Source of the DNA: an uncultured Actinomycetes bacterium
Lineage (GTDB): Bacteria > Actinomycetota > UBA4738 > HRBIN12
NCBI GenBank assembly: GCA_963823255.1
Contig: CAWGKU010000004.1
Span: 35,112 to 99,111 of the forward strand
Direction: 5' to 3'
Length of the DNA: 64,000 nucleotides
The position numbers were made by a program, and so were the translations under genes. Below, piece by piece: positions 6,235-55,783 of this stretch (the first letter of the stretch is position 1; every line of letters begins with the position of its first letter). Under the pieces are notes generated by a model, which searched no databases, was not told the origin of the DNA, and saw only the letters and a program-made list of their open reading frames with translations.

Positions 6235-6851
6235 AGCTCCCCTGGTTCCTTCCCGAGACGCCCGACGTGATCGGGCTCCTCCGGGAGCAAGCCGCCGTGA
6301 CGATCGGAGGGCTCGAGGCGCTCACCGAGTGGGCCGCGGGCGAGTCGGCCGCCGCCGAGCGGGTGCGTGAGTCCGAACACGCCGCCGACGAGAGGAGGCT
6401 CGCGCTCCTCAAGGCACTCACGGCATCGTTCACGACGCCGATCGACGCGGAGGACGTCTTCACGATGTCCGAGCGACTCGACGCCGTGATGAACGGGGCG
6501 AAGGACGCCGTGCGCGAGGCCGAGGTTATGGACCTGCCGCCGGACGAGCACGTGCTCGGGATGGCGGGGTTCCTGTTGGAGGGCGCGCGGCACCTCGCCG
6601 AGTCGTTCGTGCGACTCGGCACGGGTGGGAAGGTCACCGACGGGCTTGCGACCGATCCGGCAGACGCGGCGATCAAGTCCCAGCGGCAGCTCGAGCGCGT
6701 GTACCGCAAAGCGATGTCGACCCTGATCACGGTCGAGGATCTCCGGGAGGTGATGGGCCGCCGCGAGCTGTACCGGCGCTTCTCACGTGTCAGCGACGAC
6801 ATCGTCGCTGTCGCGGAGCGCGTCTGGTACGCGACCGTGAAGGAGGCCTGA
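6231..6851 (+). CDS. DUF47 / TIGR00153 family protein (PhoU-like Pit accessory protein)
   Basis: ATGA overlap with pit. ~206 aa helical protein. The PiT + DUF47 pair is conserved. Confidence 0.75.
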   Translation: MKLPWFLPETPDVIGLLREQAAVTIGGLEALTEWAAGESAAAERVRESEHAADERRLALLKALTASFTTPIDAEDVFTMSERLDAVMNGAKDAVREAEVMDLPPDEHVLGMAGFLLEGARHLAESFVRLGTGGKVTDGLATDPADAAIKSQRQLERVYRKAMSTLITVEDLREVMGRRELYRRFSRVSDDIVAVAERVWYATVKEA

Positions 6852-7084
6852 CCGGGCTCCCGGGGGCGTGCTCCGTCGATGCGACCAACTCGCGGGCGGC
6901 GTCGACCTCACCCTCGTCGACGAAGAAGGGTCGGCGTCCGTCCCGGGGATCTGCATCGTCCCACCCGCTGGCGCCGTGCCGAACTCGGACGGGGCAGGCA
7001 GGATAGAGGAACACGGCTCACCGCGCGCCGGGGCGGGTCTGCGCGAGCTTCTGGGTTCCAAGGACCTGTGCTACAGCTTCGTAA

Positions 7085-7106
7085 TCACGACACACGGTCC
7101 CCACCG
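7085..7106. repeat. Partial copy of the interspersed repeat core (CACGACACACGGTCCCCACCG)
   Basis: Shares ACACACGGTCCCC with the copies at 14544 and 55770. Confidence 0.4.
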
Positions 7107-7233
7107 TCGAGGCTCTTGCTCGTTGGGTTCCGGACGAGGACCGAGCCGAGAATTGGAATCTGCCCTTCCCCGCTCGCTTCCGGCCACTCGTGAGTCCGGG
7201 GGTAACCACTCACGGTCGATCAGGCCTCGTGGA

Positions 7234-7593
7234 TCATCTCGCCAACCAGTAGAAGCTGATCGCCAGGATGCTGAGGTGCAGCGCCTGGTCAGTCGCGATC
7301 ACGCCCCAAACGACGGTGGAGAAGCTCTTGCTACCGGTCGTCCCGAGGACGAGCTTGGTCGGCCATCTCCTGTCCAGGAGTGCGTGGGTCGCGACCGAGA
7401 TCGCAAGGAACCGCACAGCGCTCCAGTCGTGCCACACCGGGACCACCAGCACGGCCATCGTCAGGTGGTAGGTGAAGACATGGGCAAGATCGGCTCGCCA
7501 GCTCCTCTCCTTGTTGGTGGCCTGCCAATCGGTCTGTGCGACGAAGTCACCGAGGAGATGTCCAGCGAGAACGAGCAAGAACACATCACTCAT
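7234..7593 (-). CDS. DUF3307-like membrane protein
   Basis: 119 aa, N-terminal LLVLAGHLLGDFVAQTDW, 3-4 TM segments. ATGA-coupled to the upstream small ORF. Confidence 0.6.
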   Translation of the reverse strand: MSDVFLLVLAGHLLGDFVAQTDWQATNKERSWRADLAHVFTYHLTMAVLVVPVWHDWSAVRFLAISVATHALLDRRWPTKLVLGTTGSKSFSTVVWGVIATDQALHLSILAISFYWLAR

Positions 7594-7736
7594 GCCCGGA
7601 CCTTCACGTTCCTCTTGCCAGCATGCTGGATGGCCTTGGCTCGGAGGACCTCGACGTCCCGTGGGTCGAGCGGAAGGACCTCGAGCCAGCGAGGCTCTCG
7701 TCGAACCCTCACCTTCTCGATGCGGATCCGCTTCAT
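7590..7736 (-). CDS. 48-aa basic protein between ECF sigma factor and DUF3307 gene
   Basis: MKRIRIEKVRVRREPRWLEVLPLDPRDVEVLRAKAIQHAGKRNVKVRA. Its start overlaps the sigma factor stop and its stop overlaps the DUF3307 start (both ATGA). Confidence 0.4.
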   Translation of the reverse strand: MKRIRIEKVRVRREPRWLEVLPLDPRDVEVLRAKAIQHAGKRNVKVRA

Positions 7737-8359
7737 CGGTTCTCCTGGCCTGAGAGGGTCTGACGGAGCGTCGCGATCCCTGCTCGGACGCGGCTCTTCA
7801 CCGTTCCGCGGGGGATGCCTTGGAGCTCGGCCACCTGTGTCGACGACCGTTGCCCCAGGTAGGAGAGTTCGACGGCCGATCGCTGGCCATGCGGGAGCCG
7901 GTCCATCGCGTTCCGCGCGCGCCGCATCAGGTCGCGGTGCACCGCGTACGACTCAGGACTGAGCTCGTCCGAAACGTCCGAGTGCCAACGACCGGACGAC
8001 AGGCTCCTGGCTTCCAGCGTGCGTCGACGGAGCAGATCGATCGCGAGGCTGCGAGCGTTCAGCAGGATCCAGGCGTCCAGGGATCCTCGTTGAGGATCGA
8101 AGGACGAGCCTCTGCGCCAGACCTTGAGGATGGTGTCCTGAACGAGGTCTTCGGCGTCGGTCTTGTTCCCAAGCAGGACGAGCCCGAGGCCATAGATGCG
8201 CGACGCGTACCGATCGTAGAACGCCGCGGCGGCCCAGGGTTCCCTCTGGAGGAGCCCGACCATCAGGCTGGCGTCCGCTTCCCGTGGCACCGCATCGCGA
8301 CGGGTGTGGCTCTTTCCGCGAGACGGCCGATCTGCCTTTGGAGCCGTGAGGAGTGCCAT
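7733..8359 (-). CDS. ECF-type RNA polymerase sigma-70 family factor
   Basis: Region 2 (DAEDLVQDTILKVWRR) and region 4 HTH (STQVAELQGIPRGTVKSRVRAG). The start may instead be the internal ATG near 8263. Confidence 0.8.
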   Translation of the reverse strand: MALLTAPKADRPSRGKSHTRRDAVPREADASLMVGLLQREPWAAAAFYDRYASRIYGLGLVLLGNKTDAEDLVQDTILKVWRRGSSFDPQRGSLDAWILLNARSLAIDLLRRRTLEARSLSSGRWHSDVSDELSPESYAVHRDLMRRARNAMDRLPHGQRSAVELSYLGQRSSTQVAELQGIPRGTVKSRVRAGIATLRQTLSGQENR

Positions 8360-8535
8360 CGCTCCGATCCCTTCCGTCCGACGTGCCCACCGTTCCGGTC
8401 GGCTTCGACGCTAAGGGGAAGGGATCGGGCCGCAAACCTTGGAATCGGTACGTTAAACGCCCTTTGACCTCATGAAATGGGGGGGCCGCCCGGTTCTCGA
8501 GGCATCGAACGAATCCCCTCCGGCTCGAACGCCGC

Positions 8536-11313
8536 CTATCGCTCGGCCAGCTTCCGAGACAGTTCGGTCCGCGACCGGACGCCGAGCTTCTGATAGATCC
8601 GCCGGAGGTTCGCCTCGACGGTGCTGACGCTCAAGAACAGCGCCTGGGCCGCCTCCCGATTGGTGAGTCCGCTCGCCACCAGGTCGGCGACCCTCTGCTC
8701 CGTCGGCGTCAGGCCGACGGGACCGGGAGCCCGACCTCCCACCCTCGCGATCTCGGCCCGCGCCTTGTCCGCCCACAGAGCCGCGCCGAGCTGCTCGAAT
8801 ATCGCCAACGACCGACCGAGCGAGTCCCGCGCGAGCCGCCACTTCTTCGTTCGGCGCAGGGCTTGGCCCTGCGCGAGCAGCGTGCGCCCGAGCTCGAAGG
8901 GCTCCTCCAGGGCTGCGTGATGCTCCAGGGCCCGGTCGAACGCGGCGAGCGCCTCGGGGAGTTCGCCCCGCGAGGCGGCGAGCAGCCCCCCGCTTCGTTC
9001 GGCGGCGGCCAGCGCCCACGACCGCCCAAGCGCCTCGGCGCGAGCGAGGAACGGTTGCAGGAGCGAGTGTGCCTTCTCCGCCTCGCCCAGCGCGATGAGC
9101 GCCTCGATCTCATCGGGCAGGAACCGCAGCATGCCCGGCTCGCCGATCCCGGCCTCGAGTACGCCTTCGGCGAGCGGCCGGAGCAGGCGATCGGTCGCCT
9201 CCGCGTTCCCCAGCGACAGTTCGAGGAATCCGAGCGCCGAGAGGTTGAACTGACCGGCCTGCTTCAGACCGGACTGCCGGGCAAGCTCCAGGCCCTCATC
9301 GGCGGCGGTCCGTGCGGGCTGCTCCTGTCCCCGGTGCGCCTCGATGAGCGCCTTGGCGGAAAGGGCGAGCGCACGGTACGGCTGCTGGCCGGTCCACACC
9401 GTGATGGTGCCGCTCTCGTCCGCGTACCGACCCGCCTCGCTCCAAGCACCGGCCCAGCACTCCAGCAGCGCAAGCATGAACAGGATCACGGCGAGCGAGC
9501 CCTCATCGCCTCCGTCCCGGCAGCGCTTCTCGATGTCCGTCAACGTCGATCTCGCCGCGTCCAGGTCGTCCGTCCATAGCGACACGCAGGCCTCGCGGAA
9601 GGTCGGGCTGCGGAGAGGCCGGAGATCCCCTCCCATCTCCTCGAGCCCCACCGCGCGATTCATCACGCTGCGCTGGGTTCCCTTCCCGGAGACGAAGTCG
9701 TAGAAGGCGACCAACGCGAGACCTTCGGCAAGCATCGACTCGTCACCCTGACCCTCCGCCAGATCCACGGCGGCACGCGCGTGAACCCTCGCGCCGTCGT
9801 GGTCACCGGCTGCCTCCGAGGCCGCTGCGAGCTCCATCTGGATCCGCGTCCTCAAGTCCGGATCCTGCGCCGCTTCCGAAAGGGCCTCTTCGGCGAGTGA
9901 TCGCGCCGAGAGCGCGTCATGGCTGTGGTAGTGGATCCTGGCAAGGAAGAGCAACGCCTCCGCACGCAGCCAGCCGGTGGGAGCAGCCGCCACCGCCTCC
10001 TCGAGCAAGGCGGCAGCCCTGCCCATGTCCGCGGCCTCGAAGGCGTACTGACCGGCGTGCACCGTTCGATGGATCCGCGCCTCGGTGTGTTCGGACGGGG
10101 TCAGCTCGCGAGCGAGCTCCGACAGTTGGGCTGCGGCGTCCGGCGCGCCACGCCCGGCTGCCTTGCGGGCCGCCTCCTCCAATTCCGCGGCGACGCCCTC
10201 GGCCGGACCCTCGGCGGCGAGCGCGAGATGACGCGCCCGCTCCTCCTGATCGACCACGACCGCGGCCAGCCGTCGGTGGACATCTCTCCGTGCCTCTGCC
10301 GAGGACTCCGAGTACGCCACGGTCGCAAGCAGCGGGTGGGTCGATCGGACGCGTCCGCCGCTCCCCTCGATGATGCCGGCCTTGAAGGCATCTTCGATGT
10401 CGTCTTCTGCCGTCGGACCGCCGATCGCTCCCGCGACCAGTGAGACCGTCGGCTGGGACGCGGCCGAGATGACCAGGAGCACCTGCCTGACCGGATCGGG
10501 GAGCTCGGACAACCGATCGGTGACGAGGTCGGAGAGGTTCGACGGGACGGGAAGGTTCGCTTCCGGTACCTTTTCGATCCCACGCCGGACGAGCGCTCGT
10601 CCGAGTTCCAGAGCCAGGAACGGGTTCCCCGCCGACGCCTCGTAGATGCGAAGCAGCAGCGGGCGCGGGAAGCGCGCGGACAACTCAGAGCTCAGCAGGT
10701 TGCGCGTCGCCTGGAGCGTCATCGGCCCGACCATGACCCGTTCGATCCGGTCGTCCGAGAGAGCGCGCTCGAGTCCGAGGGGAAGCGGATGGAGCTCCTG
10801 AGCGCGCACGGTCATGACGAGACCGATCGGTGCATCGTTCAAGCGCCGAAGCGCGAACTCCAGCACTCGGGCCGAGGGCGCGTCCAGCCACGATGTGTCA
10901 TCGATCGCAACCACCAACGGGCCCCCCGAAGCGAGCGCGAGCAGGGCGCCGTGGAAGGCGGTCGAGATCGCCCGCTGGTCGGGTGGGAAGCCGGTCGCGT
11001 CAGCGCGAAGGAGAGCAACCTCGAGGGCCGATCGCTGGGGTGAGGGAAGCCGTTCCAGGCTCTCCTCGACGACCCCTTCCAAGAGGTCTCCAAGAGCGGC
11101 GTAAGAGAGCTTCGCTTCCGACTCGTCGGGTCGACACGAGAGCACCCGATAGGCACGCTCCCTGGCTTGGGAAAGGGCTTCGAGCCACAGGGTGCTCTTG
11201 CCGATGCCCGCCTCTCCGCCGAGGATGAGCGCGACCGGCCCCGAGGGTACGCCTTCCAACAGCCTCGAGACGTGGGCCAGTTCGGTCTCCCTGCCGAACA
11301 GCCCTCGCTCCAT
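8536..11313 (-). CDS. LuxR-family transcriptional regulator with N-terminal AAA/STAND ATPase domain (LAL/MalT-like)
   Basis: Walker A GEAGIGKST, long TPR-like helical middle, C-terminal LuxR HTH (LTPTEQRVADLVASGLTNREAAQALFLSVSTVEANLRRIYQKLGV). I place the start at the ATG at 11313 (MERGLFGRETEL...). Confidence 0.85.
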   Translation of the reverse strand: MERGLFGRETELAHVSRLLEGVPSGPVALILGGEAGIGKSTLWLEALSQARERAYRVLSCRPDESEAKLSYAALGDLLEGVVEESLERLPSPQRSALEVALLRADATGFPPDQRAISTAFHGALLALASGGPLVVAIDDTSWLDAPSARVLEFALRRLNDAPIGLVMTVRAQELHPLPLGLERALSDDRIERVMVGPMTLQATRNLLSSELSARFPRPLLLRIYEASAGNPFLALELGRALVRRGIEKVPEANLPVPSNLSDLVTDRLSELPDPVRQVLLVISAASQPTVSLVAGAIGGPTAEDDIEDAFKAGIIEGSGGRVRSTHPLLATVAYSESSAEARRDVHRRLAAVVVDQEERARHLALAAEGPAEGVAAELEEAARKAAGRGAPDAAAQLSELARELTPSEHTEARIHRTVHAGQYAFEAADMGRAAALLEEAVAAAPTGWLRAEALLFLARIHYHSHDALSARSLAEEALSEAAQDPDLRTRIQMELAAASEAAGDHDGARVHARAAVDLAEGQGDESMLAEGLALVAFYDFVSGKGTQRSVMNRAVGLEEMGGDLRPLRSPTFREACVSLWTDDLDAARSTLTDIEKRCRDGGDEGSLAVILFMLALLECWAGAWSEAGRYADESGTITVWTGQQPYRALALSAKALIEAHRGQEQPARTAADEGLELARQSGLKQAGQFNLSALGFLELSLGNAEATDRLLRPLAEGVLEAGIGEPGMLRFLPDEIEALIALGEAEKAHSLLQPFLARAEALGRSWALAAAERSGGLLAASRGELPEALAAFDRALEHHAALEEPFELGRTLLAQGQALRRTKKWRLARDSLGRSLAIFEQLGAALWADKARAEIARVGGRAPGPVGLTPTEQRVADLVASGLTNREAAQALFLSVSTVEANLRRIYQKLGVRSRTELSRKLAER

Positions 11314-19940: not shown

Positions 19941-20003
19941 TTCCGCCTCCCCGTCGTGAGTTGGTCCTCGAGCAGTCCATCCCTTCGCCGCGATCGCGAC
20001 AGA

Positions 20004-20070
20004 CTCCGTGCCTGCGCCACCCAACCCTCTCGATCCGCCGATTGTGCTCCACAGAGACGACACGATCCAC
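20004..20070. repeat. Interspersed repeat copy (5' module + variable spacer), in 5' UTR of M20 peptidase gene
   Basis: CCGTGCCTGCGCCACCCAACCCTCTCGATCCGCCGATTGTGCTCCACAGAGACGACACGATCC aligns with the copies at 52150, 53520, 55030 and 55710. Confidence 0.7.
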
Positions 20071-20208
20071 GCGGTCGAAGGTCCAGTTACGACGCCTACA
20101 CGAAGCAACTGCGTTTGCCATGCTCCGGCATCAGCTGCGGATCCTTGACCGGCGGGAGCCCTGAATGATGCTCCTGCCGGACTGAGGACGGCTGGTACCC
20201 TCCGCGCC

Positions 20209-21582
20209 ATGACGACCCACGCACACGATCACGGCGCCCACGGGAGCGGCCCGCCGTTGGCCTCGGAGCTGGAACCTCCAAAGCATGCGTTCGACGGAGT
20301 TGGGCATCCGGCCCACACCGTCCTCGCCCACGAGGACGAGCTCGAGCGCGAGCTCCACCACGCCGTCGCCGCCGAGGCGCCGGCGATCGAAGACCTCCTT
20401 CGGACCCTGATCGAGCAGCCGACGACGTTGGGGAACGAGGAGGCCGGCCAGGCCGTGATGCGAGACGCGCTGCGGGATCTCGGCCTCGAGCCGGTCAACG
20501 TGCCGATGGACTCCGAAGGGTTACGCGCCCACCCCGCCGCCGCCCCCTTCGACTGGGACGTGGAGGGAAAGGCCAACGTCGTCGCGACGTGGGGTCGGGA
20601 CGGCGGCGGTCGCTCGTTGATCCTGAACGGGCACATCGACGTCGTCCCGCCTGACCCGATCCCCGAATGGTCGCAACCGCCCTTCTCGGCGACCCGGGAC
20701 GGGGACTGGATCCACGGGCGCGGCGCGGCCGACATGAAGTGCGGGCTCGCGGCGATCGTCGGAGCGGTGCGGGCGATCCGCCGCTTGGGCCTGGAGCCCA
20801 CGGCGCGGGTCCACATCGAGTCGGTGGTCGAAGAGGAGTGCACGGGCAATGGCACGCTCGCCACGGTGATGTCGGGCTACACGGCCGACGCGGCCGTGAT
20901 CGCGGAGCCGTTCGGCGCCGCGATCACGACGTCGCAGGTCGGGGTGCTGTGGTTCCACGTCCGCGTGCTCGGGACGGCCGGCCACGCGGCCGATGGGGCC
21001 CGCGGCGGGAACGCGATCGAGCGGAGCTTCGACGTGATGCGGGGGCTTCGAGGCCTCGAGGCAGAGCTCAACACCGCTCCGCCGTCGCCCTATGACGCTC
21101 TGACGCACCCGATAAATCTCAACGTGGGTGCGATCCGCGGCGGCGAGTGGACGTCGACGGTCCCGTTCTCATGCGAGACCTCGTACCGGATCGCCTTCTA
21201 CCCGGGCACGTCGGTCGACGACGTGCGCGAGCGGATCGAGGCCGTGGTACGCCACTCGGCGGTCGGCTCGGGTCCCGCTCCCGAGGTCCGGTACGCCGGT
21301 CTCGCCTCGGAAGGCTACGAGCTCGACGAGGCTCATCCGCTCGTGACCACGCTCGCCGCGGCGTTCGCGCGCGGCACCGGGGAGCCGCCGGAGCTTGTCG
21401 CCACGACCGGGACCACGGACGCCGTCGTGCTCGGCGCCGCCGGGCGCACCCCCGCGGTGTGCTTCGGACCGTACGCCGAAGGCGCCCATGGGGTGGACGA
21501 ACGGGTGTGGTTCCCATCGGTGGTGCAGACGGCCCAGGTCATGGCATCGTTCGTCCGGGACTGGTGCGGGCTGTCCGGCTGA
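20209..21582 (+). CDS. M20-family metallopeptidase (ArgE/DapE/acetylornithine deacetylase-like amidohydrolase)
   Basis: NGHIDVVPP, GRGAADMKCGLAA and GEW...P motifs. His-rich N-terminal extension, so the true start may be downstream. Confidence 0.8.
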   Translation: MTTHAHDHGAHGSGPPLASELEPPKHAFDGVGHPAHTVLAHEDELERELHHAVAAEAPAIEDLLRTLIEQPTTLGNEEAGQAVMRDALRDLGLEPVNVPMDSEGLRAHPAAAPFDWDVEGKANVVATWGRDGGGRSLILNGHIDVVPPDPIPEWSQPPFSATRDGDWIHGRGAADMKCGLAAIVGAVRAIRRLGLEPTARVHIESVVEEECTGNGTLATVMSGYTADAAVIAEPFGAAITTSQVGVLWFHVRVLGTAGHAADGARGGNAIERSFDVMRGLRGLEAELNTAPPSPYDALTHPINLNVGAIRGGEWTSTVPFSCETSYRIAFYPGTSVDDVRERIEAVVRHSAVGSGPAPEVRYAGLASEGYELDEAHPLVTTLAAAFARGTGEPPELVATTGTTDAVVLGAAGRTPAVCFGPYAEGAHGVDERVWFPSVVQTAQVMASFVRDWCGLSG

Positions 21583-21643
21583 TCCGGGCGCGTCGCACCG
21601 CCCCCGTGGGTCGGCCGTCGCTGGGCGAGGGGGGTCGCAGGAA

Positions 21644-23107
21644 ATGGGTCACACGCGGACGACGCTTCGAGGCGTCCCGGAGATCCGCCGGTTCTTCCGA
21701 ACGAACGAGATCCCGATCTACTTCGTGAGCGCGACGGCCTTCAACCTCCTCGGGATCGATCGATGGGTCGGCAACTTCCGGTTCGTGAACTACTACGACT
21801 CGTTCGACGGCCAACATCCGAACGTCTTCGTTCCCGCCGAGCGCGAGCCGCGCCCGTTCACCTCGATCGAGGAGATCGTCAACTACCTCCTCGGGCACAA
21901 GGAGGTCGTCGACTGGGTGCGAGGAAGGGGGGGCGGCAGGGCCACGTTCCTGATGTTTGACGAGGAGACGGAGGCGCTGGCGCACGAGCTCGGCCTGGAG
22001 GTCGCGTTCCCCCCCGCGTCGCTCCGGCACCGGCTCGACTCGAAGATCGTGACGACACGGCTCGGCAACGACGCGGGCGTCCCGAGCGTGCCGAACGTGC
22101 TCGGCCGCGCGACCAGCTACCGGGACCTCCTCGAGCTGGCCGACCGCGCCGGGCTCGGACACGACCTGGTCGTCCAGCTGGCGTACGGCGACTCAGGCCA
22201 GACCACGTTCTTCGTCGCGGACGAACCCGGGTGGGCGCAGCATCGAGCGGAGATGGTGGACGAGGAACTGAAGGTGATGAAGCGGATCGAACCGCGGGAA
22301 GCGGCGATCGAAGGCGTCGTCACGCGGCATGGGACGTTGGTCGGCCCGCTGATGACGGAGCTCGCCGGGTTCACGGAACTGACGCCGTATCCGGGGGGTT
22401 GGTGCGGCAACGACGTCTTCGCGGGCGTCCTCACCGAGGCCCACCGCCGCAAGGCACGGGCGTACACCCAGGCCATGGGCGAGCGCCTGCGGCGGGAAGG
22501 CTACCGAGGCTACTTCGAGATCGACTTCCTGGCCGACGCGGCGACCGGCGAGCTCTACCTGGGCGAGTTGAACCCCCGGGTCACCGGCGCGTCGAGCATC
22601 ACCAACGTGACCGCCGTCGCCTACGGCGACATGCCGCTGTTCCTGTTCCACCTCCTGGAGTTCATGGACGTCGACTACGAGATCGATGTCGACGAGCTGA
22701 ACGAGCGATGGACGGATCCGGCCAGCATCGACGCGTGGTCCCAGTTCGTCATGAAGCAGAGCGAGGACGTCGTCGAGCTGATCACCGCGGCGCCGGCCTC
22801 CGGTCGCTGGCACCTCGACCCGGGGGGGCCCCGCTTCGTCCGGCCGGACGTCGATTGGCACACGATCGGCGATCGTGACGACGCCTTCTATCTCCGCATC
22901 GCGGGGGCGGGCCACTATCGATACAAGGGCGCCGACCTCGGGATCCTGGTGACGAGGGGCCGGTTGATGGACGACGACTACGAGCTCACGGACCGCGCCC
23001 GGGCCTGGATCTCGGGCATCAAGGCCGCCTTCCGCGGCGTCCCGGTCGAGGAGGAAATGCCCCCATCGCTCCCCGTGCTGGAGCCGTTCGGCTTCAAGAT
23101 GTTGTAG
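21644..23107 (+). CDS. ATP-grasp ligase with pre-ATP-grasp N-terminal domain (PGM1-like peptide ligase family)
   Basis: 487 aa. N-terminus EIPIYFVSATAFNLLGIDRWVGNFRFVNYYDSF (pre-ATP-grasp). Central ATP-grasp pattern (GYRGYFEIDFL...GELYLGELNPRVTGAS). Confidence 0.65.
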   Translation: MGHTRTTLRGVPEIRRFFRTNEIPIYFVSATAFNLLGIDRWVGNFRFVNYYDSFDGQHPNVFVPAEREPRPFTSIEEIVNYLLGHKEVVDWVRGRGGGRATFLMFDEETEALAHELGLEVAFPPASLRHRLDSKIVTTRLGNDAGVPSVPNVLGRATSYRDLLELADRAGLGHDLVVQLAYGDSGQTTFFVADEPGWAQHRAEMVDEELKVMKRIEPREAAIEGVVTRHGTLVGPLMTELAGFTELTPYPGGWCGNDVFAGVLTEAHRRKARAYTQAMGERLRREGYRGYFEIDFLADAATGELYLGELNPRVTGASSITNVTAVAYGDMPLFLFHLLEFMDVDYEIDVDELNERWTDPASIDAWSQFVMKQSEDVVELITAAPASGRWHLDPGGPRFVRPDVDWHTIGDRDDAFYLRIAGAGHYRYKGADLGILVTRGRLMDDDYELTDRARAWISGIKAAFRGVPVEEEMPPSLPVLEPFGFKML

Positions 23108-23136
23108 GGAGGCACCGAGTTCTCTTCGATAAGCGC

Positions 23137-24133
23137 ATGCGATCGATCACGTTCACCTTCCGAGCGATGCAGGAGCCGGAGCCCGGCCCGAAGTGGCAGG
23201 GCGTGTTCGAGCAGCACTGGGCCGCCTACCGGCAGTGGTTCCTCGCCGAGGGCGAGGGGGCGCGAGCGTCCTACGCGACCTCGGCGAGGATGCTGCGCGC
23301 GCACATGCCGGAGCTGTACCCGGTCTACGAGCGCCTGGTGGAGCTCTCGGGAGGAGGCGACCTCGCGGCCCGGATGCTCTCGATCTACAAGCCGCCGCCC
23401 TACCTCGCCGCGTGCACGCAGGGCGTGTGGACACGCACCGGCCACCCGGTGCTCGTCCGGAACTACGACTACTCGCCCTCCCATCTCGAGGGGCTGATCT
23501 GGCACAGCCGTCTCCTCGGCCGGCGAGTGATCGCGATGAGCGACTGCCTCTGGGGTGTGCTCGACGGGATGAACGAGGACGGGCTGGCGGTTTCGCTCAC
23601 GTTCGGAGGGCGCCGCGTGCTGGGTGACGGGTTCGGGATCCCCTTGATCCTTCGATACGTGCTCGAGACCTGTTCAACGGCGGCCGAGGCTCAGGAGGTC
23701 CTCGCACGGCTCCCGTGCAACCTTGCGCACAACGTCACGATGGTCGACCGCTCCGGCGACGTGGTGACCGCGTTCCTGTCTCCGGATCGCGAGCCGGTCC
23801 TCAGCCGGTCGCCGGTCGCAACCAACCATCAGGGCTTCGTCGACTGGCCGGAGCAGGCGCGCGCGACCCGCACGCTCGAGCGCGAGCGGGATGTGCTCGA
23901 GCTGTTGCATCGTCCTCACATGACGGTAGGACGAGTTCGCCGATGCGTTCCTTCGCCCGGGGCTGTTCAGCCGAGCGTACGACCGCGGCTTCGGCACGCT
24001 CTACACGGCCGTCTACCGGGTCACCGAGTCGCGCGCCGAGTACCGGTGGCCGACCTTCACGTGGCCGCAGAGCTTCGACGTCTTCGACGAGGGTCTGCAC
24101 GAGGAGACGCTCGCCGAGGGTTCGGTCGCGTAG
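23137..24133 (+). CDS. C45-family NTN hydrolase (acyl-CoA:6-APA acyltransferase-like), apparent frameshift near 23930
   Basis: The first ~265 aa are C45-like (Cys nucleophile in LAACTQG). The last ~66 aa (DEFADAFLRPGLFSRAYDRGFGTLYTAVYRV...) continue in another frame. Together they make a typical ~330-aa protein. Confidence 0.6.
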
Positions 24134-24406
24134 CCGCGCCCTCGAGCTCAGGCGAGGTACGAAGCCGGTCGTCGACGAAGCCGTCCAGACAGCCCTTCCG
24201 AGTCCACCAGGGGCAGCCTCGGCCGCGTTCGACGCGGGGACGACCACGCCTCCGGGGCGAGGCCCGATCACCCGCAGGCTGGAACGGACGTCGAGTCGTC
24301 CTAACGGTTGGGGGCCCTTCGGCCCTCGGGGGGGCCCGCCCGCGTGCCTAGGGTGGAGGTGGTTCATCGAGGGGCAGTGGTTGCCCCGGTTGCGAAAGGA
24401 GTGGAG

Positions 24407-24841: not shown

Positions 24842-26097
24842 GACGACCACTCCGTCACGACGTCGGCTCGCGCGAGAGCACTCGGGCGAGCCGACGTCCG
24901 TATGGGGATGGAACCCGAGGATGTCTACCGTAGCGATGTCGCCGGGTGCGACGGTGCGACCTTGGCCGAGCAGATCCCGGCGACGCCCTTGGCCATCGAG
25001 ACGATCGTGAGGATCGGCGGTTGAGCAGACCGCCGGAAGCTGCGATCTCGCCCGCCTCCTCAGCCCAGAACCGCGATGCCCTCGAGGGTCGCTCCAGCGC
25101 CCTCCGTCGCTGGTCGCTCTACTCGCGGGCGGAGCCCCCAGAGCAGCTCGTCGAGATCGCCGTTCGTCGGCATGGCAGTAGATGTCCGTTGAGCCCGCGC
25201 CACGTTGGAGCGCTCGCGCTCACCATGCTCGCCGGGAGCCAAGTCGGATATCGTGATCGAGCAATCGACGAACCGCGCGTCGAACCGCGCGGGAGATGTC
25301 AAGGTTGCCGTCCACTCGGGCGGGCTCAACGTTCACCATCCCACTTGCTGTGCCACTGGGCGCCCGCGTGAGACCGGCCGCCGACTGACAGCACCGGTCG
25401 CGCTTCGACATCTAGGGTGGACCTATCTCCCAGTCGGGGGATTCCTGAGTCAGGGTATGTCGAGTCGACGGGAACCTCGGGCGCAGGCTCCGAACCTGGG
25501 GCGACCGGTGCTGGTGCCACCCCCGATCGGTACCTCGGATCGGCGACCGTCACGATCACCTGGGCGATCGGGTAGCGCAAACGGGCAAGACGCCTGCGAC
25601 GGGTCTGGTTGCAGATGGCCCTTCGTCGGCGGCCAGCATGCCGGGGTCGTGCAATGCCGCGGTCGTTGACTGGTCTCACGAGGTCGAGCGGAGCCGGGAC
25701 TTCCGGACGAGGCTCTGAGGGAGTTCGCGGATGGGTGCGGGAACTGAATCGCGGGACGTGGGCGCGGCGAATGGAACCATCTCCAGCACGGAGAAGTGGT
25801 GTTAGGGCGACAGATCGAGGTAAGGCGTGGAAGTCTTCGTGTAAGTCGTGGCGGCTACAATCCACGATGGCATCAAGAGTGGCTCGGCTCGATAGCCGAG
25901 CCCGGCAACCTGGGACGGACAACCCAAGGTGCCTTCCGCGGAAGCGGGGATGTGGCTCCACAAAGGGAGCAACAAAGTGTTCGAGGCGTGACTGCCTTCC
26001 GATGCTTCGGAGGCGGACCTTCTTCGTTCCGGAGCCGCTGCGCGCGGCCCCCCGTCCGTGACGTCACCAACGGCTCCCCGTCCGGAAGGAGGCGATC

Positions 26098-26553
26098 GTG
26101 GCGAAGCCATACTCATCCTGGTCCGGGCGGGAGATCATCCAACCGTCTGAGCTACGGCACTACCGGTTCGTCCGCGACGCTCGACGTGAAGACACCTACG
26201 AGGTCTGGCGCGACGACCACCTTGTCGTGGGCTCGGCCGTGGGCTTCGGGCTCGACCGCCTCACCGCCGACTACGTGCGCCGCGAGGAGGAGGAGCGCGA
26301 GACCGAGGCCGCCCAGCGGTCCGGTGATCCGCTCACGCTCTGCCGCCTCGGATGGCACCTCACCGACCCTGGGGTGTGGTTCCGCCTAGCGGCGGGGAAG
26401 TCGAACGATCTTTGGATCTATCGGGTCGGACCTGAGCCGTTCGACCATCTGTGCAGGACCATCTGGAGCTACGGCAACCCGCCGATTCCCTGCAACGCCT
26501 GCGGGCGTCCTATCGACCGGGACCACGCGAGACTAGACGAACCGGAATCGTAG
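26098..26553 (+). CDS. Hypothetical protein
   Basis: GTG start after RBS GGAAGGAGG. 151 aa, Trp/Tyr-rich, protein-like composition. No recognisable domain. Confidence 0.5.
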   Translation: MAKPYSSWSGREIIQPSELRHYRFVRDARREDTYEVWRDDHLVVGSAVGFGLDRLTADYVRREEEERETEAAQRSGDPLTLCRLGWHLTDPGVWFRLAAGKSNDLWIYRVGPEPFDHLCRTIWSYGNPPIPCNACGRPIDRDHARLDEPES

Positions 26554-50612: not shown

Positions 50613-51932
50613 ATGTCGATCATCGAACGTTCCGCCTCGCCACAGGCTCCGGCCGCCGGGTCGAAGCCGCGCGGCGGCCGGTTGCGCGTGATCACGGCGG
50701 GCAGCGTGGGCAACATGGAGGCTCGGCTCGGGACGAGTGGGTTCGACGTCGTCGCGGTCGCCGAGACGGAGGAGGCGCTGATCGATGCCGTGTCGGCGGA
50801 CGAGGCGGACGCGATCGTCGTCGAGGCCGACCTTTGCGACTCGCTCGAGCGCGTTCGAGATCTGGCACCCAATGCACTGCTCATCGTCATCGGCGATCAC
50901 ACGCCCGCCGGCGCGCTCGGTCGCATCGAGCCTGGTGTGTCAGGGACCGTGATGGCCGGGCTCCTGCACGCGCTGGTCGCCGAAGGCGTCGGGGGGGCCG
51001 TCGGGTGGGGGCTCGTGCCCGCGTTGGGACCGCGGGGCGTGCTGCAAGTTCCCCAGCGCATCAGCGGATGGCTGCTATCGGCCAAAGCGGATCTCGTCCG
51101 AGAGTACGTTGCGAACGCCTTTCGCGACCACGCGGAACTCCTTACCGCGGCGAGCACCGTCGCGGTGACCGTTTCCGCGAGCCTTGTGCTGACGCTGAGC
51201 GCAGCCCACACGCACGAACGTTCACACGAACGCTCGGAGCGCGTCCATGTTTCCGCGCCGGCCGTGGAGCGCGCGCCGCTGTATCCGGCCGTCGCTGTTT
51301 CCCCCACGACGCCAACACCCGCCTATGTTCCCTCCCAGAACGAGGGCGAGCCCGGCGACCGACGAGGGCTGAACCGCGGTGAGTCAGGAGCTGATGGTCG
51401 CCCAGTGGGCCAGGACGCCGACGATATGGGCCAGATCGAGAACGCTGGCGACGATCTGGGTCAGGTCGAGACCGCCGCCAACGATCTGGGCCAAGGCGAG
51501 AACGCCGGCGACGATCACGGCCAGGACGAGAACGCCGGCGCCGATCACGGCAAGAACGAGAACGCCGGCGACGATCACGGCCAGGGCGAGAACGCCGGCG
51601 ACGATCACGGGCAGGGCGAGAACGCCGGCGACGATCACGGCAAGAACGAGAACGCCGGCGACGATCACGGCAAGGGCGGCGACGATCAGGACGGCGACGT
51701 GAGCGAGGGTGACGACCAGGACGCTGGCGACCAGGACGGTGAGAACCAGGACGGTGAGAACCAGGACGGTGAGAACCAGGACGGTGAGAACCAGGACGGT
51801 GAGAACCAGGACGGTGAGAACCAGGACGGTGACGAGGAGGACGGTGACGACCAGGACGTCGCGGGGGATACAGCGACCGCCGCCGGGACCTCGGCGTCAA
51901 GTCCAGCGACTGGAGTCGCCCTGACCTACTAG
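50613..51932 (+). CDS. Receiver-like (pseudo-receiver) domain protein with long acidic low-complexity repeat tail
   Basis: N-terminus RLRVITAGSVGNMEARLGTSGFDVVAVAETEEALIDAVSADEADAIVVEADL is REC-like. The C-terminus has ~9 copies of (ENAGDDHGQG) and ~7 copies of (GENQD). Confidence 0.55.
   Translation: MSIIERSASPQAPAAGSKPRGGRLRVITAGSVGNMEARLGTSGFDVVAVAETEEALIDAVSADEADAIVVEADLCDSLERVRDLAPNALLIVIGDHTPAGALGRIEPGVSGTVMAGLLHALVAEGVGGAVGWGLVPALGPRGVLQVPQRISGWLLSAKADLVREYVANAFRDHAELLTAASTVAVTVSASLVLTLSAAHTHERSHERSERVHVSAPAVERAPLYPAVAVSPTTPTPAYVPSQNEGEPGDRRGLNRGESGADGRPVGQDADDMGQIENAGDDLGQVETAANDLGQGENAGDDHGQDENAGADHGKNENAGDDHGQGENAGDDHGQGENAGDDHGKNENAGDDHGKGGDDQDGDVSEGDDQDAGDQDGENQDGENQDGENQDGENQDGENQDGENQDGDEEDGDDQDVAGDTATAAGTSASSPATGVALTY
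51411..51684. repeat. 30-nt coding tandem repeat (~9 units, GACGATCACGGCCAGGGCGAGAACGCCGGC-like)
   Basis: Direct inspection. The units diverge at the edges. Confidence 0.8.
51733..51830. repeat. 15-nt coding tandem repeat (GACGGTGAGAACCAG x6-7)
   Basis: Direct inspection. Encodes DGENQ repeats. Confidence 0.85.
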
Positions 51933-52129: not shown

Positions 52130-52207
52130 GGCGTCGTGTTCGGCGACGCTTTTCGTGCCTACGCTACCCAGCCCTCTCGATCCGCCCCCAACACTCCTTG
52201 TGCGTAC
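52130..52207. repeat. Interspersed repeat copy (hairpin + TTTTCGTGCCT...CCCTCTCGATCCGCC + tail)
   Basis: Aligns with the copies at 53499, 55017, 55693 and 20004. Leading hairpin GCGTCGTGTTCGGCGACGC. Confidence 0.7.
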
Positions 52208-52409
52208 ACCGAATGGTGATGGGTCGTGTCAGATCAGCTTCATGGCGCAGATGGCAATGGGGTCGAGTAACGGGGTCGAGTAACGGGGTGCAAGTCCGAG
52301 GGCCAGGCACTGGGCGCACCGGGAGCCCACGCCGCACGGCGAACCGGCGGCCTAGACTCCGCAGGAGAATCTGCGATCCGTGCCCGCGTGACTAGCCGAG
52401 GAGGCCGTT

Positions 52410-53498: not shown

Positions 53499-53576
53499 GC
53501 CGTCGCGTTCAGCGACGGTTTCCGTGCCTGCGCCACCCAACCCTCTCGATCCGCCCTCAACGCTCCTTATGCGTCG
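53499..53576. repeat. Interspersed repeat copy
   Basis: CCGTCGCGTTCAGCGACGG hairpin + TTTCCGTGCCTGCGCCACCCAACCCTCTCGATCCGCCCTCAACGCTCCTTATGCG. Confidence 0.7.
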
Positions 53577-53786
53577 ACCGAACAAGACGGGGTTAGCGGT
53601 CTTGAGATCACGTCCGTGCTACCGGGCGCACCGGATGCCCGCGCCGCATGGCGATCCGTCCAGTCGGGGTGGCGAAGTGTCTCGTCCCGCTTATCTGCTG
53701 CAGCTCAGGTCACTCCAGCTTCGTATCCGAGGGTCGGGCGTTGGACCCGTGGCGACCTCTAAGGCCCAGAGGTATGGTTCGCGGAA

Positions 53787-55016: not shown

Positions 55017-55080
55017 TAGCGACGCATTTCGTGCCTGCGCTTCCCAGCCCTCTCGATCCGCCCTCAACGCTCCTGATGCG
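55017..55080. repeat. Interspersed repeat copy
   Basis: GACGCATTTCGTGCCTGCGCTTCCCAGCCCTCTCGATCCGCCCTCAACGCTCCTGATGCG. Confidence 0.7.
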
Positions 55081-55207
55081 AAGAGTCCACGCCCATGAGC
55101 CGCCGGGGCATGACCACCTCTTCATCCCCCCCGGATGATGCACCGCTCATGCCCTTGCGCTCGAATGGCATGAGGGTTCGGCCCTGGGTAGGAAGGCTGG
55201 TGGCGAC

Positions 55208-55692: not shown

Positions 55693-55783
55693 TGCGTCGC
55701 TTCCAGCGACGGTTTCCGTGCCTGCCTCCCCAGCCCTCTCGATCCGCCGATCGTCCTCCACGTAGACGACACACGGTCCTTGC
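55693..55783. repeat. Interspersed repeat copy (5' module + spacer + GACACACGGTCC core)
   Basis: GCGTCGCTTCCAGCGACGG hairpin + TTTCCGTGCCTGCCTCCCCAGCCCTCTCGATCCGCCGATCGTCCTCCACGTAGACGACACACGGTCC. Confidence 0.7.

Follow-up and report, generated by a model that had tools for sequence, protein, structure and literature searches.

What reaction could unite an ATP-grasp enzyme with two hydrolases of different families in a single actinobacterial operon? This question is posed by a 64,000-nt stretch of DNA from an uncultured actinobacterium (at its full length referred to here as the window; GC content of about 67%), in which positions 20209 to 24133 of the plus strand carry consecutive genes for an M20 metallo-amidohydrolase, an ATP-grasp enzyme, and a C45-family cysteine N-terminal nucleophile (Cys-Ntn) hydrolase/acyltransferase. 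We found that the ATP-grasp and C45 genes constitute an obligate, often translationally coupled pair across Actinomycetota, Alpha-, Beta-, and Gammaproteobacteria, and Bacteroidota. The pair is joined by a second amidohydrolase, which is an M20 enzyme in Actinomycetota and a nitrilase-superfamily C-N hydrolase in Gram-negative bacteria. Tentatively, and with slightly more doubt than confidence, we propose that the operon encodes an ATP-dependent conjugation/deconjugation module for a small amine metabolite and not a system for peptide or antibiotic tailoring. The superfamilies of its members are already known, and two curated NCBIfam models already cover these genes. The operon is composed as follows.

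20209 to 21582, plus strand: M20 metallo-amidohydrolase gene, 457 amino acids (open reading frame, Pfam, NCBIfam PRK06837)
21644 to 23107, plus strand: ATP-grasp enzyme gene, 487 amino acids (open reading frame, NCBIfam NF005096/PRK06524, database name "biotin carboxylase")
23137 to 23928, plus strand: C45 Cys-Ntn hydrolase/acyltransferase gene, part 1, residues 1 to 264, including the predicted self-cleavage site before Cys93 (Pfam AAT, NCBIfam C45_proenzyme)
23929 to 23930, plus strand: GG dinucleotide with one extra G, +1 frameshift in the C45 gene (comparison with contig L001, phase of third-codon-position GC)
23930 to 24133, plus strand: C45 gene, part 2, residues 265 to 331 and stop codon, +1 frame, with the invariant GTLYT motif (frame translation)
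20170 to 24147, plus strand: 4-kb block consisting of the operon with about 35 nt of 5′ and about 8 nt of 3′ sequence (blastn against contig L002)

The three codirectional open reading frames (ORFs) and their spacing, with gaps of 61 nt (M20/ATP-grasp) and 29 nt (ATP-grasp/C45), were found exactly as given in the preliminary description of this DNA. The length of the ATP-grasp protein is counted from the ATG at 21644; the mechanical ORF begins further upstream at a TTG. Each of the three gene starts is preceded by a purine-rich stretch. The GC content at the third codon position (GC3) is 0.82 to 0.98 in the frame of all three genes, which therefore represent real coding regions and not chance ORFs.

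Linkage of the operon genes in Actinomycetota

When one genome per GTDB species was scanned, 80 loci were found to encode ATP-grasp proteins with 70 to 98% identity to that of the window, all of them in metagenome-assembled genomes (MAGs) of Actinomycetota; 79 could be scored. A C45 gene lay downstream of the ATP-grasp gene on the same strand in 78 of the 79 (directly adjacent in 74), with a median gap of about 20 nt and some overlaps. The M20 gene was present upstream in 59 of the 79 loci and directly adjacent in 57. Most loci hold the operon in a syntenic block with genes for GroEL, a Cpn10-like protein, an NlpC/P60-SLH protein, UPF0047, an S9 peptidase, and MoaA, and the loci without M20 carry the ATP-grasp/C45 pair in the same block. 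Two class III aminotransferases and a Rieske oxygenase are encoded upstream in two Thermoleophilia loci that lack M20.

The operon of the window and that of its closest relative, contig L002 (98% amino acid identity), are both located apart from the groEL-linked synteny that the other 78 loci show. In a blastn comparison, similarity between the two (96.6% identity) was restricted to window positions 20170 to 24147, corresponding to L002 positions 6529 to 10502, and the flanking gene families are unrelated. Since the two contigs share only the three-gene block, the three genes move as one unit, which provides independent support for including M20. This comparison suggests relocation or exchange of the operon as a 4-kb cassette lacking a promoter. 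A scan for promoters and terminators yielded signals not above shuffle expectation, and a megablast search of the operon against plasmids gave no match. Two ABC exporters encoded directly upstream of the operon and a DUF7144 gene downstream of it were considered as further operon parts and rejected because they are not conserved: the exporters were not found in the other 80 loci, and DUF7144 was not conserved among them. The linked function that had been suggested for the three genes is supported by their co-conservation, both in the counts for C45 and M20 and in the operon being the only segment common to the window and L002.

As assembled, the C45 reading frame of the window is not intact. 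The ORF starting at 23137 continues to 24351, and from about residue 265 onward its translation is an Arg/Pro-rich, out-of-frame sequence. The GC3 phase moves by one at 23929/23930, and the C45 end at 24133 (stop codon, 24131 to 24133) is reached only with a +1 shift after Val264, reading from 23930. The end assigned in the preliminary description is correct under the +1 frame; the frameshift itself had been overlooked. Contig L001, a metagenome contig (ENA ERZ25039490) that encodes an ATP-grasp protein identical to that of the window, has one G fewer (GGTAGAC, compared to GGTAGGAC in the window) and contains an intact C45 gene of 331 amino acids whose C terminus is identical to part 2. An assembly error is the most likely, though unproven, source of the extra G, because the alignment of the window with L001 (99.2% identity over 21 kb) contains 41 gap openings and because frame-split C45 or M20 genes occur in 7 of the 80 other MAG loci. 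If real, the frameshift would delete the last 67 residues of C45, including the GTLYT motif.

The pair in Gram-negative bacteria

Orthologs outside Actinomycetota were retrieved by tblastn against plasmids and by two further protein searches. ATP-grasp orthologs with 38 to 55% identity were found in Alpha-, Beta-, and Gammaproteobacteria and in Bacteroidota, and 16 Gram-negative neighborhoods were examined. These include Shinella, Roseateles, Roseobacter ponti, Chondrinema, two Rhizobium leguminosarum plasmids, pSymA of Sinorhizobium meliloti RU11/001, Cupriavidus oxalaticus, Cupriavidus basilensis, Variibacter, Bradyrhizobium, an uncultured Shewanella, a Gallionellaceae MAG, an Osedax symbiont, two further MAG or metagenome contigs, and one JGI contig (gene table only). 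All 16 loci have the ATP-grasp gene next to the C45 gene, once with C45 truncated or replaced: on plasmid L083, an 83-amino-acid ORF and IS30/ISNCY elements occupy its place.

Thirteen of the 16 loci additionally contain an orthologous Orn/Lys/Arg decarboxylase (Pfam OKR_DC_1) of about 870 to 1,000 amino acids, and a remnant of it was detected in a fourteenth. The OKR_DC_1 major domain begins only at about residue 290 to 370 (L090, 6116 to 8899; L088, 5658 to 8669; and orthologs); the N-terminal extension is therefore about 160 to 240 residues longer than in LdcC/AdiA-type enzymes. An orthologous nitrilase-superfamily C-N hydrolase (CN_hydrolase), 50 to 82% identical between phyla, is present in 10 of the 16. 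The window and the 80 actinobacterial loci contain neither the decarboxylase nor the C-N hydrolase. Further neighbors of the pair encode arginase-family ureohydrolases, a 5-guanidino-2-oxopentanoate decarboxylase, an aldehyde dehydrogenase, a DAO-type FAD oxidoreductase, a racemase-arginase fusion, RidA, GabT, a succinate-semialdehyde dehydrogenase, APC permeases, family 5 peptide/opine binding-protein ABC systems, a dicarboxylate symporter, and MocR/GabR- and Lrp-type regulators. The DAO oxidoreductase and the aldehyde dehydrogenase flank the pair only in Shinella and Roseateles.

A second architecture was observed in Shewanella, Gallionellaceae, and one further bacterium, where a fusion of a urea transporter domain with an M23 domain (about 700 amino acids) is encoded directly upstream of the decarboxylase/ATP-grasp/C45 genes (L093, 2476 to 4569; L094, 2502 to 4658; JGI 3300072015 contig), followed by TPR proteins. 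An unannotated protein of 294 to 328 amino acids recurs with the fusion, its gene being located after C45 in L093 and L094 and, in the JGI contig, separating the fusion gene from the TPR gene.

In one locus (L096), an M20 gene was found beside the module and was considered as a cross-phylum counterpart of the actinobacterial M20; with 23% identity, it is a member of another subfamily and was rejected. On proteobacterial plasmids, the surroundings of PRK06837-type M20 genes are heterogeneous and uninformative. On a plasmid of R. leguminosarum bv. trifolii (L089, 8037 to 8831), a 264-amino-acid "hypothetical" ORF directly upstream of the intact ATP-grasp gene is a fragmentary duplicate of the N-terminal part of that gene (NF005096, E = 8e-39).

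A full-text literature search, with most subscription journals outside its reach, found no publication on the ATP-grasp/C45 pair or on the four-gene Gram-negative module. For the S. meliloti sma068x genes, the search turned up only the CATCH-N paper, which does not mention these genes.

Assignment of the three enzymes

The ATP-grasp protein matched NCBIfam NF005096 (PRK06524) with 733 bits (cutoff, 684), residues 4 to 473 aligning to profile positions 12 to 484 of 493. No Pfam family exceeded its threshold: Biotin_carb and CPSase_L_D2 stayed below it, and at E ≤ 10 only ATP-grasp_3 (0.041) and CPSase_L_D2 (0.093) appeared. An AlphaFold2 model built from 41 homologs (pLDDT, 91.6; pTM, 0.90) displayed the predicted three-domain ATP-grasp fold, and Foldseek returned 601 PDB matches for it at E ≤ 0.001. 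The best 50 of these 601 were biotin carboxylase-type domains and one PurK, aligned over about 470 to 490 columns; PGM1 was absent among these 50. The top matches (biotin carboxylases and PurK) reached TM scores of 0.55 to 0.61 at 13 to 16% identity. When the family profile was compared with PDB sequences, biotin carboxylase domains again ranked best (E = 5e-12), followed by carbamoyl phosphate synthetase (CPS; 5e-5), the gamma-glutamyl ligase BesA (1.5e-4), and PGM1 (3WVQ; 1.1e-3), the last over residues 263 to 323 only, i.e., about 60 residues around the Mg motif. Clustering with cyanophycin or glutathione synthetases, a possibility raised in the preliminary description, was not seen; the enzyme stood apart from both in profile and fold searches.

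Among the 41 homologs, which extend down to 29% identity, K134, the Gly-rich loop 181-YGDSGQ-186, E308, N310, and R312 are nearly invariant. The latter three residues lie in the family motif GE[LI]NPR[ILV][ST]G, which comprises the Mg-binding E-x-N and the following Arg. Two further invariant motifs, GGWCGN (251 to 256) and FHLLEF (335 to 340), are specific to the NF005096 family. In a phmmer alignment, NPRIQVEH of pyruvate carboxylase 2QF7 faces NPRVTGAS, so that the catalytic Glu of biotin carboxylase is replaced by Ala316; across the family, the consensus residue here is Gly, Ala, Ile, or Ser. No domain fusions were recognized by Pfam in six longer ATP-grasp homologs. Three distant family members (P0211, P0231, and P0245; about 33% identity) lack the GE[LI]NPR Mg/phosphate motif and may be catalytically dead paralogs.

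The classification as an ATP-grasp enzyme made at the outset is thus correct, and its refinement to a PGM1 type with a pre-ATP-grasp domain is not: Pfam gave no support for it, and PGM1 (1e-3) ranked far behind biotin carboxylases. The protein does resemble PGM1, the pheganomycin peptide ligase, and the L-amino-acid ligases in being an ATP-grasp enzyme with an NPR-type motif and in its proposed carboxylate-amine ligase chemistry via an acyl phosphate. Unlike for those enzymes, however, there are no PGM1-specific Pfam domains and no precursor peptide gene or biosynthetic cluster at the operon. A PGM1-type peptide ligase was rejected on these grounds, together with the absence of peptide-biosynthetic neighbors.

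The C45 protein scored above the cutoffs of NCBIfam NF040521 (C45_proenzyme; 144.6 bits, cutoff 85) and Pfam AAT (PF03417; E = 4.6e-26, 92.3 bits, cutoff 23.2). It is a family C45 Cys-Ntn hydrolase/acyltransferase, as originally described, and is predicted to be autoproteolytic. In an alignment of 15 orthologs from four phyla, the putative nucleophile Cys93 (A-A-C93-T-Q, with a small residue before the Cys) was present in 14; the 92-residue prosegment is conserved, as are the motifs RNYDY (108 to 112), DGMNE (143 to 147), TNHQ (229 to 232), and GTLYT. Conservation or invariance was also seen for R108, N109, D111, N230, and R249, and a profile search linked the protein weakly to choloylglycine hydrolases (E = 4e-3).

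The M20 protein possesses a catalytic and a dimerization domain (Pfam Peptidase_M20, E = 1.7e-30, and M20_dimer) and exceeded the cutoffs of NCBIfam NF005306/PRK06837 (430 bits, cutoff 376) and TIGR01910 (265 bits, cutoff 217.6). These matches uphold the earlier description of an ArgE/DapE-like M20 metallopeptidase and assign the protein, by sequence, to the ArgE/DapE-type deacylases of subfamily PRK06837. Substrate-specific ArgE/DapE equivalog models all scored far under their cutoffs (e.g., TIGR01892, 127.6 versus 297.7; PRK13009, 121.9 versus 284), and the [LysW]-lysine hydrolase model matched weakly (E = 1.4e-20). The closest solved structure is 3PFO (E = 6e-75), an uncharacterized structural-genomics protein named "putative acetylornithine deacetylase." Candidate di-zinc ligand and catalytic residues were located at H142 (HIDVV), D175 (GAADMK), E208/E209 (VEEE), E233 (IAEP), and H427 (AHGVDE), which, judged by their sequence motifs, presumably correspond to the respective residues of DapE.

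A proposed amine conjugation/deconjugation cycle

The following sequence of reactions is proposed for the module. In a first step, the M20 or C-N hydrolase would free an amino group by removing an N-acyl or N-carbamoyl group; alternatively, the decarboxylase would supply a diamine or agmatine as the free-amine substrate. The ATP-grasp enzyme would then convert a small carboxylate (of the beta-alanine, gamma-aminobutyrate [GABA], glutamate, or succinate type) into an acyl phosphate and join it to the primary amine, forming an amide. Finally, C45 would cut itself before Cys93, and the N-terminal Cys thereby exposed would hydrolyze the small N-acyl amide or transfer the acyl group, giving back the amine. 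Such a cycle may serve catabolism, detoxification, or homeostasis of amines derived from polyamines or basic amino acids and would involve neither ribosomal nor nonribosomal peptide synthesis.

In favor of this chemistry are the ATP-grasp fold with its Mg/phosphate motif, the C45 catalytic constellation, and the M20 metal-ligand motifs, and the Gram-negative contexts often include arginine, GABA, or polyamine genes. Amide-forming ATP-grasp enzymes include carnosine synthase, BesA, the phevamine HsvB/C enzymes, and glutathionylspermidine synthetase. Beta-alanine synthases/N-carbamoyl amidohydrolases exist in two nonhomologous forms, M20 and C-N hydrolase, and the alternation of these two families beside the pair might match the two forms, which we regard as a lead and not as a result. 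The C45 enzyme IAT cleaves an aminoadipoyl amide and, to our knowledge, every characterized C45 enzyme targets a small acyl group bound to nitrogen in a small molecule. AzsT, another member, removes the succinyl group from succinyl-HAA (PMC10445470), and insect Tan hydrolyzes N-beta-alanyl-dopamine, the product of the ligase Ebony acting on a decarboxylase-derived amine (PMC10194958).

Several points weigh against the proposed cycle. If the ligase and the hydrolase share one target bond, the result would be a futile cycle unless regulation or an intervening step separates them. Of the 16 Gram-negative contexts, only 2 contain a Puu-like oxidase with an aldehyde dehydrogenase, and the actinobacterial operon contains neither. 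This operon also lacks a decarboxylase, so the link to amines is extrapolated there from orthologs at 50 to 55% identity. The nearest relatives of the ATP-grasp enzyme (biotin carboxylase, PurK, and CPS) activate bicarbonate and not organic acids. Moreover, the C45 gene is frameshifted in the window itself, and no assay of this ATP-grasp family or C45 subfamily was found in the literature searched.

A wider claim, which is possible but which we consider doubtful, is that the ATP-grasp/C45 pair represents a new phylum-spanning pathway for the reversible N-acylation of amines derived from basic amino acids (putrescine, cadaverine, agmatine, or related compounds) with a small amino or dicarboxylic acid. 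It would be a bacterial counterpart of Ebony/Tan built from other parts, in which the M20 or C-N hydrolase feeds one substrate, e.g., beta-alanine from an N-carbamoyl precursor.

Comparison with known systems

In Ebony/Tan, an ATP-dependent ligase couples a small amino acid to an amine that stems from an amino acid decarboxylase, and a self-processing C45 enzyme releases the amine again (PMC10194958), and the Gram-negative module has decarboxylase, ligase, and C45 genes side by side. The ligases differ, Ebony being an adenylating enzyme resembling nonribosomal peptide synthetases (NRPSs), whereas the ligase proposed here is an ATP-grasp enzyme. The Actinomycetota operon has M20 in place of the decarboxylase, and the decarboxylase of the Gram-negative module is of the Orn/Lys/Arg type, so that the expected amines are aliphatic, unlike in Ebony/Tan.

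A second parallel is offered by PuuA/PuuD and by glutathionylspermidine synthetase/amidase (Gsp), in which a polyamine nitrogen is acylated with ATP and the amide is then hydrolyzed by a Cys-dependent enzyme. As for PuuA/PuuD, catabolic genes for arginine, putrescine, and GABA are associated in the genome, and glutathionylspermidine synthetase shares the ATP-grasp fold. However, PuuA is glutamine synthetase-like, PuuD is a class I amidotransferase-like hydrolase, and the Gsp amidase is a CHAP domain fused to the synthetase. None of the PuuA, PuuB, PuuC, or PuuD families is represented in the operon, and the Puu oxidase and aldehyde dehydrogenase are missing from it and from most contexts; the resemblance is one of logic only.

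IAT and AzsT/Tri14 belong to the same C45 family and likewise have a conserved Cys after a prosegment of about 90 residues; their known reactions remove small omega-carboxy acyl groups from nitrogen. In contrast to those enzymes, the C45 subfamily described here is defined by its constant ATP-grasp partner, and no beta-lactam or hydrazine pathway genes, carrier protein, or coenzyme A (CoA)-dependent enzymes were found near the operon. The LysX/LysK and ArgX/ArgE carrier systems also combine an ATP-grasp ligase with an M20 (ArgE/DapE-like) hydrolase that later strips off a protecting group. The operon differs from them in having no LysW-like carrier gene, an ATP-grasp enzyme that is not of the RimK/LysX type, and an M20 enzyme of subfamily PRK06837.

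Alternative functions

Because of the weak points of the amine cycle, models with a bicarbonate-dependent N-carboxylase and with an amidotransferase were kept as live rivals. In the former, which we judge unlikely, the ATP-grasp enzyme would be a biotin-independent, bicarbonate-activating N-carboxylase (PurK-like or urea/guanidine carboxylase-like) acting on urea, a guanidino compound, or an amine, and the C45, M20, and C-N hydrolases would cleave ureido, allophanate, or carbamoyl products. The bicarbonate chemistry common to all its closest sequence and structure relatives speaks for this model, as does the NPRV[ST]xxS motif, which resembles that of CPS. The M20 and C-N hydrolase families both include N-carbamoyl amidohydrolases, urea-releasing arginase-family enzymes are encoded in two contexts (L082 and L086), and a urea-transporter-domain protein is encoded in three (L093, L094, and the JGI contig). 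Nevertheless, it is the general-base Glu of biotin carboxylase that aligns to Ala316, and L-amino-acid ligases and PurT occupy the same fold neighborhood without using bicarbonate. Neither a guanidine riboswitch nor any other was found upstream of the operon in the window or in 15 related loci, and we know of no C45 enzyme that acts on ureido compounds.

The reading with which the study of this DNA began, that the operon builds or tailors a secondary metabolite or peptide by means of a PGM1-like peptide ligase and hydrolases that process the product or give resistance, is improbable. A ligase with two amide hydrolases does fit natural-product logic, C45 enzymes such as AzsT occur in natural-product clusters, the two ABC exporters lie directly upstream in the window, and, in the comparison of the window with L002, the operon behaves like a movable cassette of 4 kb. 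However, these exporters have no counterpart in the other 80 loci, and most relatives (ATP-grasp proteins 70 to 86% identical) hold the operon in the conserved chromosomal groEL/cpn10 neighborhood. No PGM1_C or pre-ATP-grasp Pfam domain was matched, and the similarity to PGM1 is confined to the Mg motif. Within ±10 kb, no NRPSs, polyketide synthases (PKSs), or enzymes for ribosomally synthesized and posttranslationally modified peptides (RiPPs) were present according to the precomputed Pfam annotation of the near-identical contig L001, so the core genes of a RiPP or NRPS cluster are missing. No conserved small ORF that could represent a precursor was detected either: the 61- and 29-nt gaps are too short, the ORFs of the 950-nt upstream spacer are only chance-like for 60 to 70% GC, and this upstream flank is not common even to L002. 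The preliminary description had itself noted the lack of an NRPS or precursor peptide nearby and had suggested scanning the flanks for small ORFs. The amine-catabolic contexts in Gram-negative bacteria likewise speak against tailoring.

A similarly small likelihood is assigned to a module that modifies a macromolecule, for example by placing an amine or amino acid on peptidoglycan or a protein C terminus, followed by trimming. RimK and the peptidoglycan branch ligases are ATP-grasp precedents, three Gram-negative contexts encode the fusion with the M23 peptidoglycan endopeptidase domain and TPR proteins, and the NlpC/P60 cell wall hydrolase is a conserved near neighbor in Actinomycetota. The NlpC/P60 gene, however, is located on the opposite strand as part of the general synteny block and is not found beside the window or L002 copies; most Gram-negative contexts are catabolic and transport related. 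Inspection of the three protein sequences, with no formal prediction, revealed no evident signal peptide or membrane segment.

Slimmer still is the chance that the pair is an amidotransferase, in which C45, as a glutaminase/amidase subunit, would feed ammonia to the ATP-grasp enzyme for amidation of a carboxylate, as in CarA/CarB or GatD/MurT. The tight, often overlapping genes, their strict pairing, and the CPS-like motifs of the ATP-grasp enzyme would suit this arrangement, and class II glutamine amidotransferases use an N-terminal Cys nucleophile. Unlike the latter, C45 has a conserved 92-residue prosegment; no C45 glutaminase is known, IAT, Tan, and AzsT cleaving N-acyl groups.

Finally, it is hardly credible that the database name can be taken at face value and that the ATP-grasp protein truly serves an acyl-CoA or pyruvate carboxylase as its biotin carboxylase subunit: the NCBIfam equivalog bears this name, and biotin carboxylases, PurK, and CPS are the best full-length profile and fold matches and share the three-domain fold and the E-x-N with following Arg, but identity is only 13 to 16%, the catalytic Glu of QVEH is replaced by Ala, the Pfam models remain under threshold, the protein has its own motifs GGWCGN and FHLLEF, no gene for biotin carboxyl carrier protein or carboxyltransferase occurs in the window neighborhood or the 16 Gram-negative contexts, and the constant partner is a C45 hydrolase. 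The name "biotin carboxylase" of NF005096 is a misnomer.

Other features of the window

A copy of an intergenic repeat had been noted 5′ of the operon. The repeat is real: it measures about 45 to 80 nt, has the invariant core CCCARCCCTCTCGATCCGCC, and occurs in five plus-strand copies in the window, compared to 0.01 expected by chance. The copies are as follows.

19996 to 20063, plus strand: dispersed intergenic repeat copy, 5′ of the operon and outside the conserved block
52143 to 52213, plus strand: repeat copy
53512 to 53582, plus strand: repeat copy
55019 to 55089, plus strand: repeat copy
55729 to 55772, plus strand: repeat copy

Four of the five are clustered within 4 kb. The repeat had no Rfam match and, among 92 loci, matched only the near-identical contig L001. 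Because neither the 98%-identical L002 nor any of the other loci carries it in front of the operon, the repeat does not belong to the conserved unit; it may represent a regulatory site peculiar to the strain or a small mobile repeat.

A SAM-I/IV riboswitch aptamer (Rfam RF01725; 57.3 bits, gathering score 41.1) was detected at 25865 to 25986 on the plus strand, 5′ of a 151-amino-acid ORF (26098 to 26553) without a Pfam match on record. Long in-frame tandem repeats with periods of 15 nt and 30 nt (GCCGTGGCCTTCTTG on the plus strand and GACGGTGAGAACCAG) are located at 1969 to 2257 and 51386 to 51884 and probably code for low-complexity segments rich in Ala/Lys and in Asp/Gly/Glu/Asn/Gln. PADLOC defense models gave no match.

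Implications

For the window, these results mean that the cluster is not a natural-product lead, that its C45 gene needs frameshift correction, and that the link to M20 is lineage specific. If the proposed conjugation/deconjugation function is true, a family that is present in more than 7,000 database clusters under the name "biotin carboxylase" is misannotated and instead marks an unstudied route of amine or polyamine handling. A new ligase/hydrolase pair of this kind would offer testable enzymology and improved genome annotation. The route would be distributed over soil Actinomycetota, rhizobial symbiosis plasmids, Cupriavidus, Bradyrhizobium, Shewanella, and iron-oxidizing Gallionellaceae, and polyamine and arginine catabolism bear on nitrogen cycling, symbiosis, and stress tolerance.

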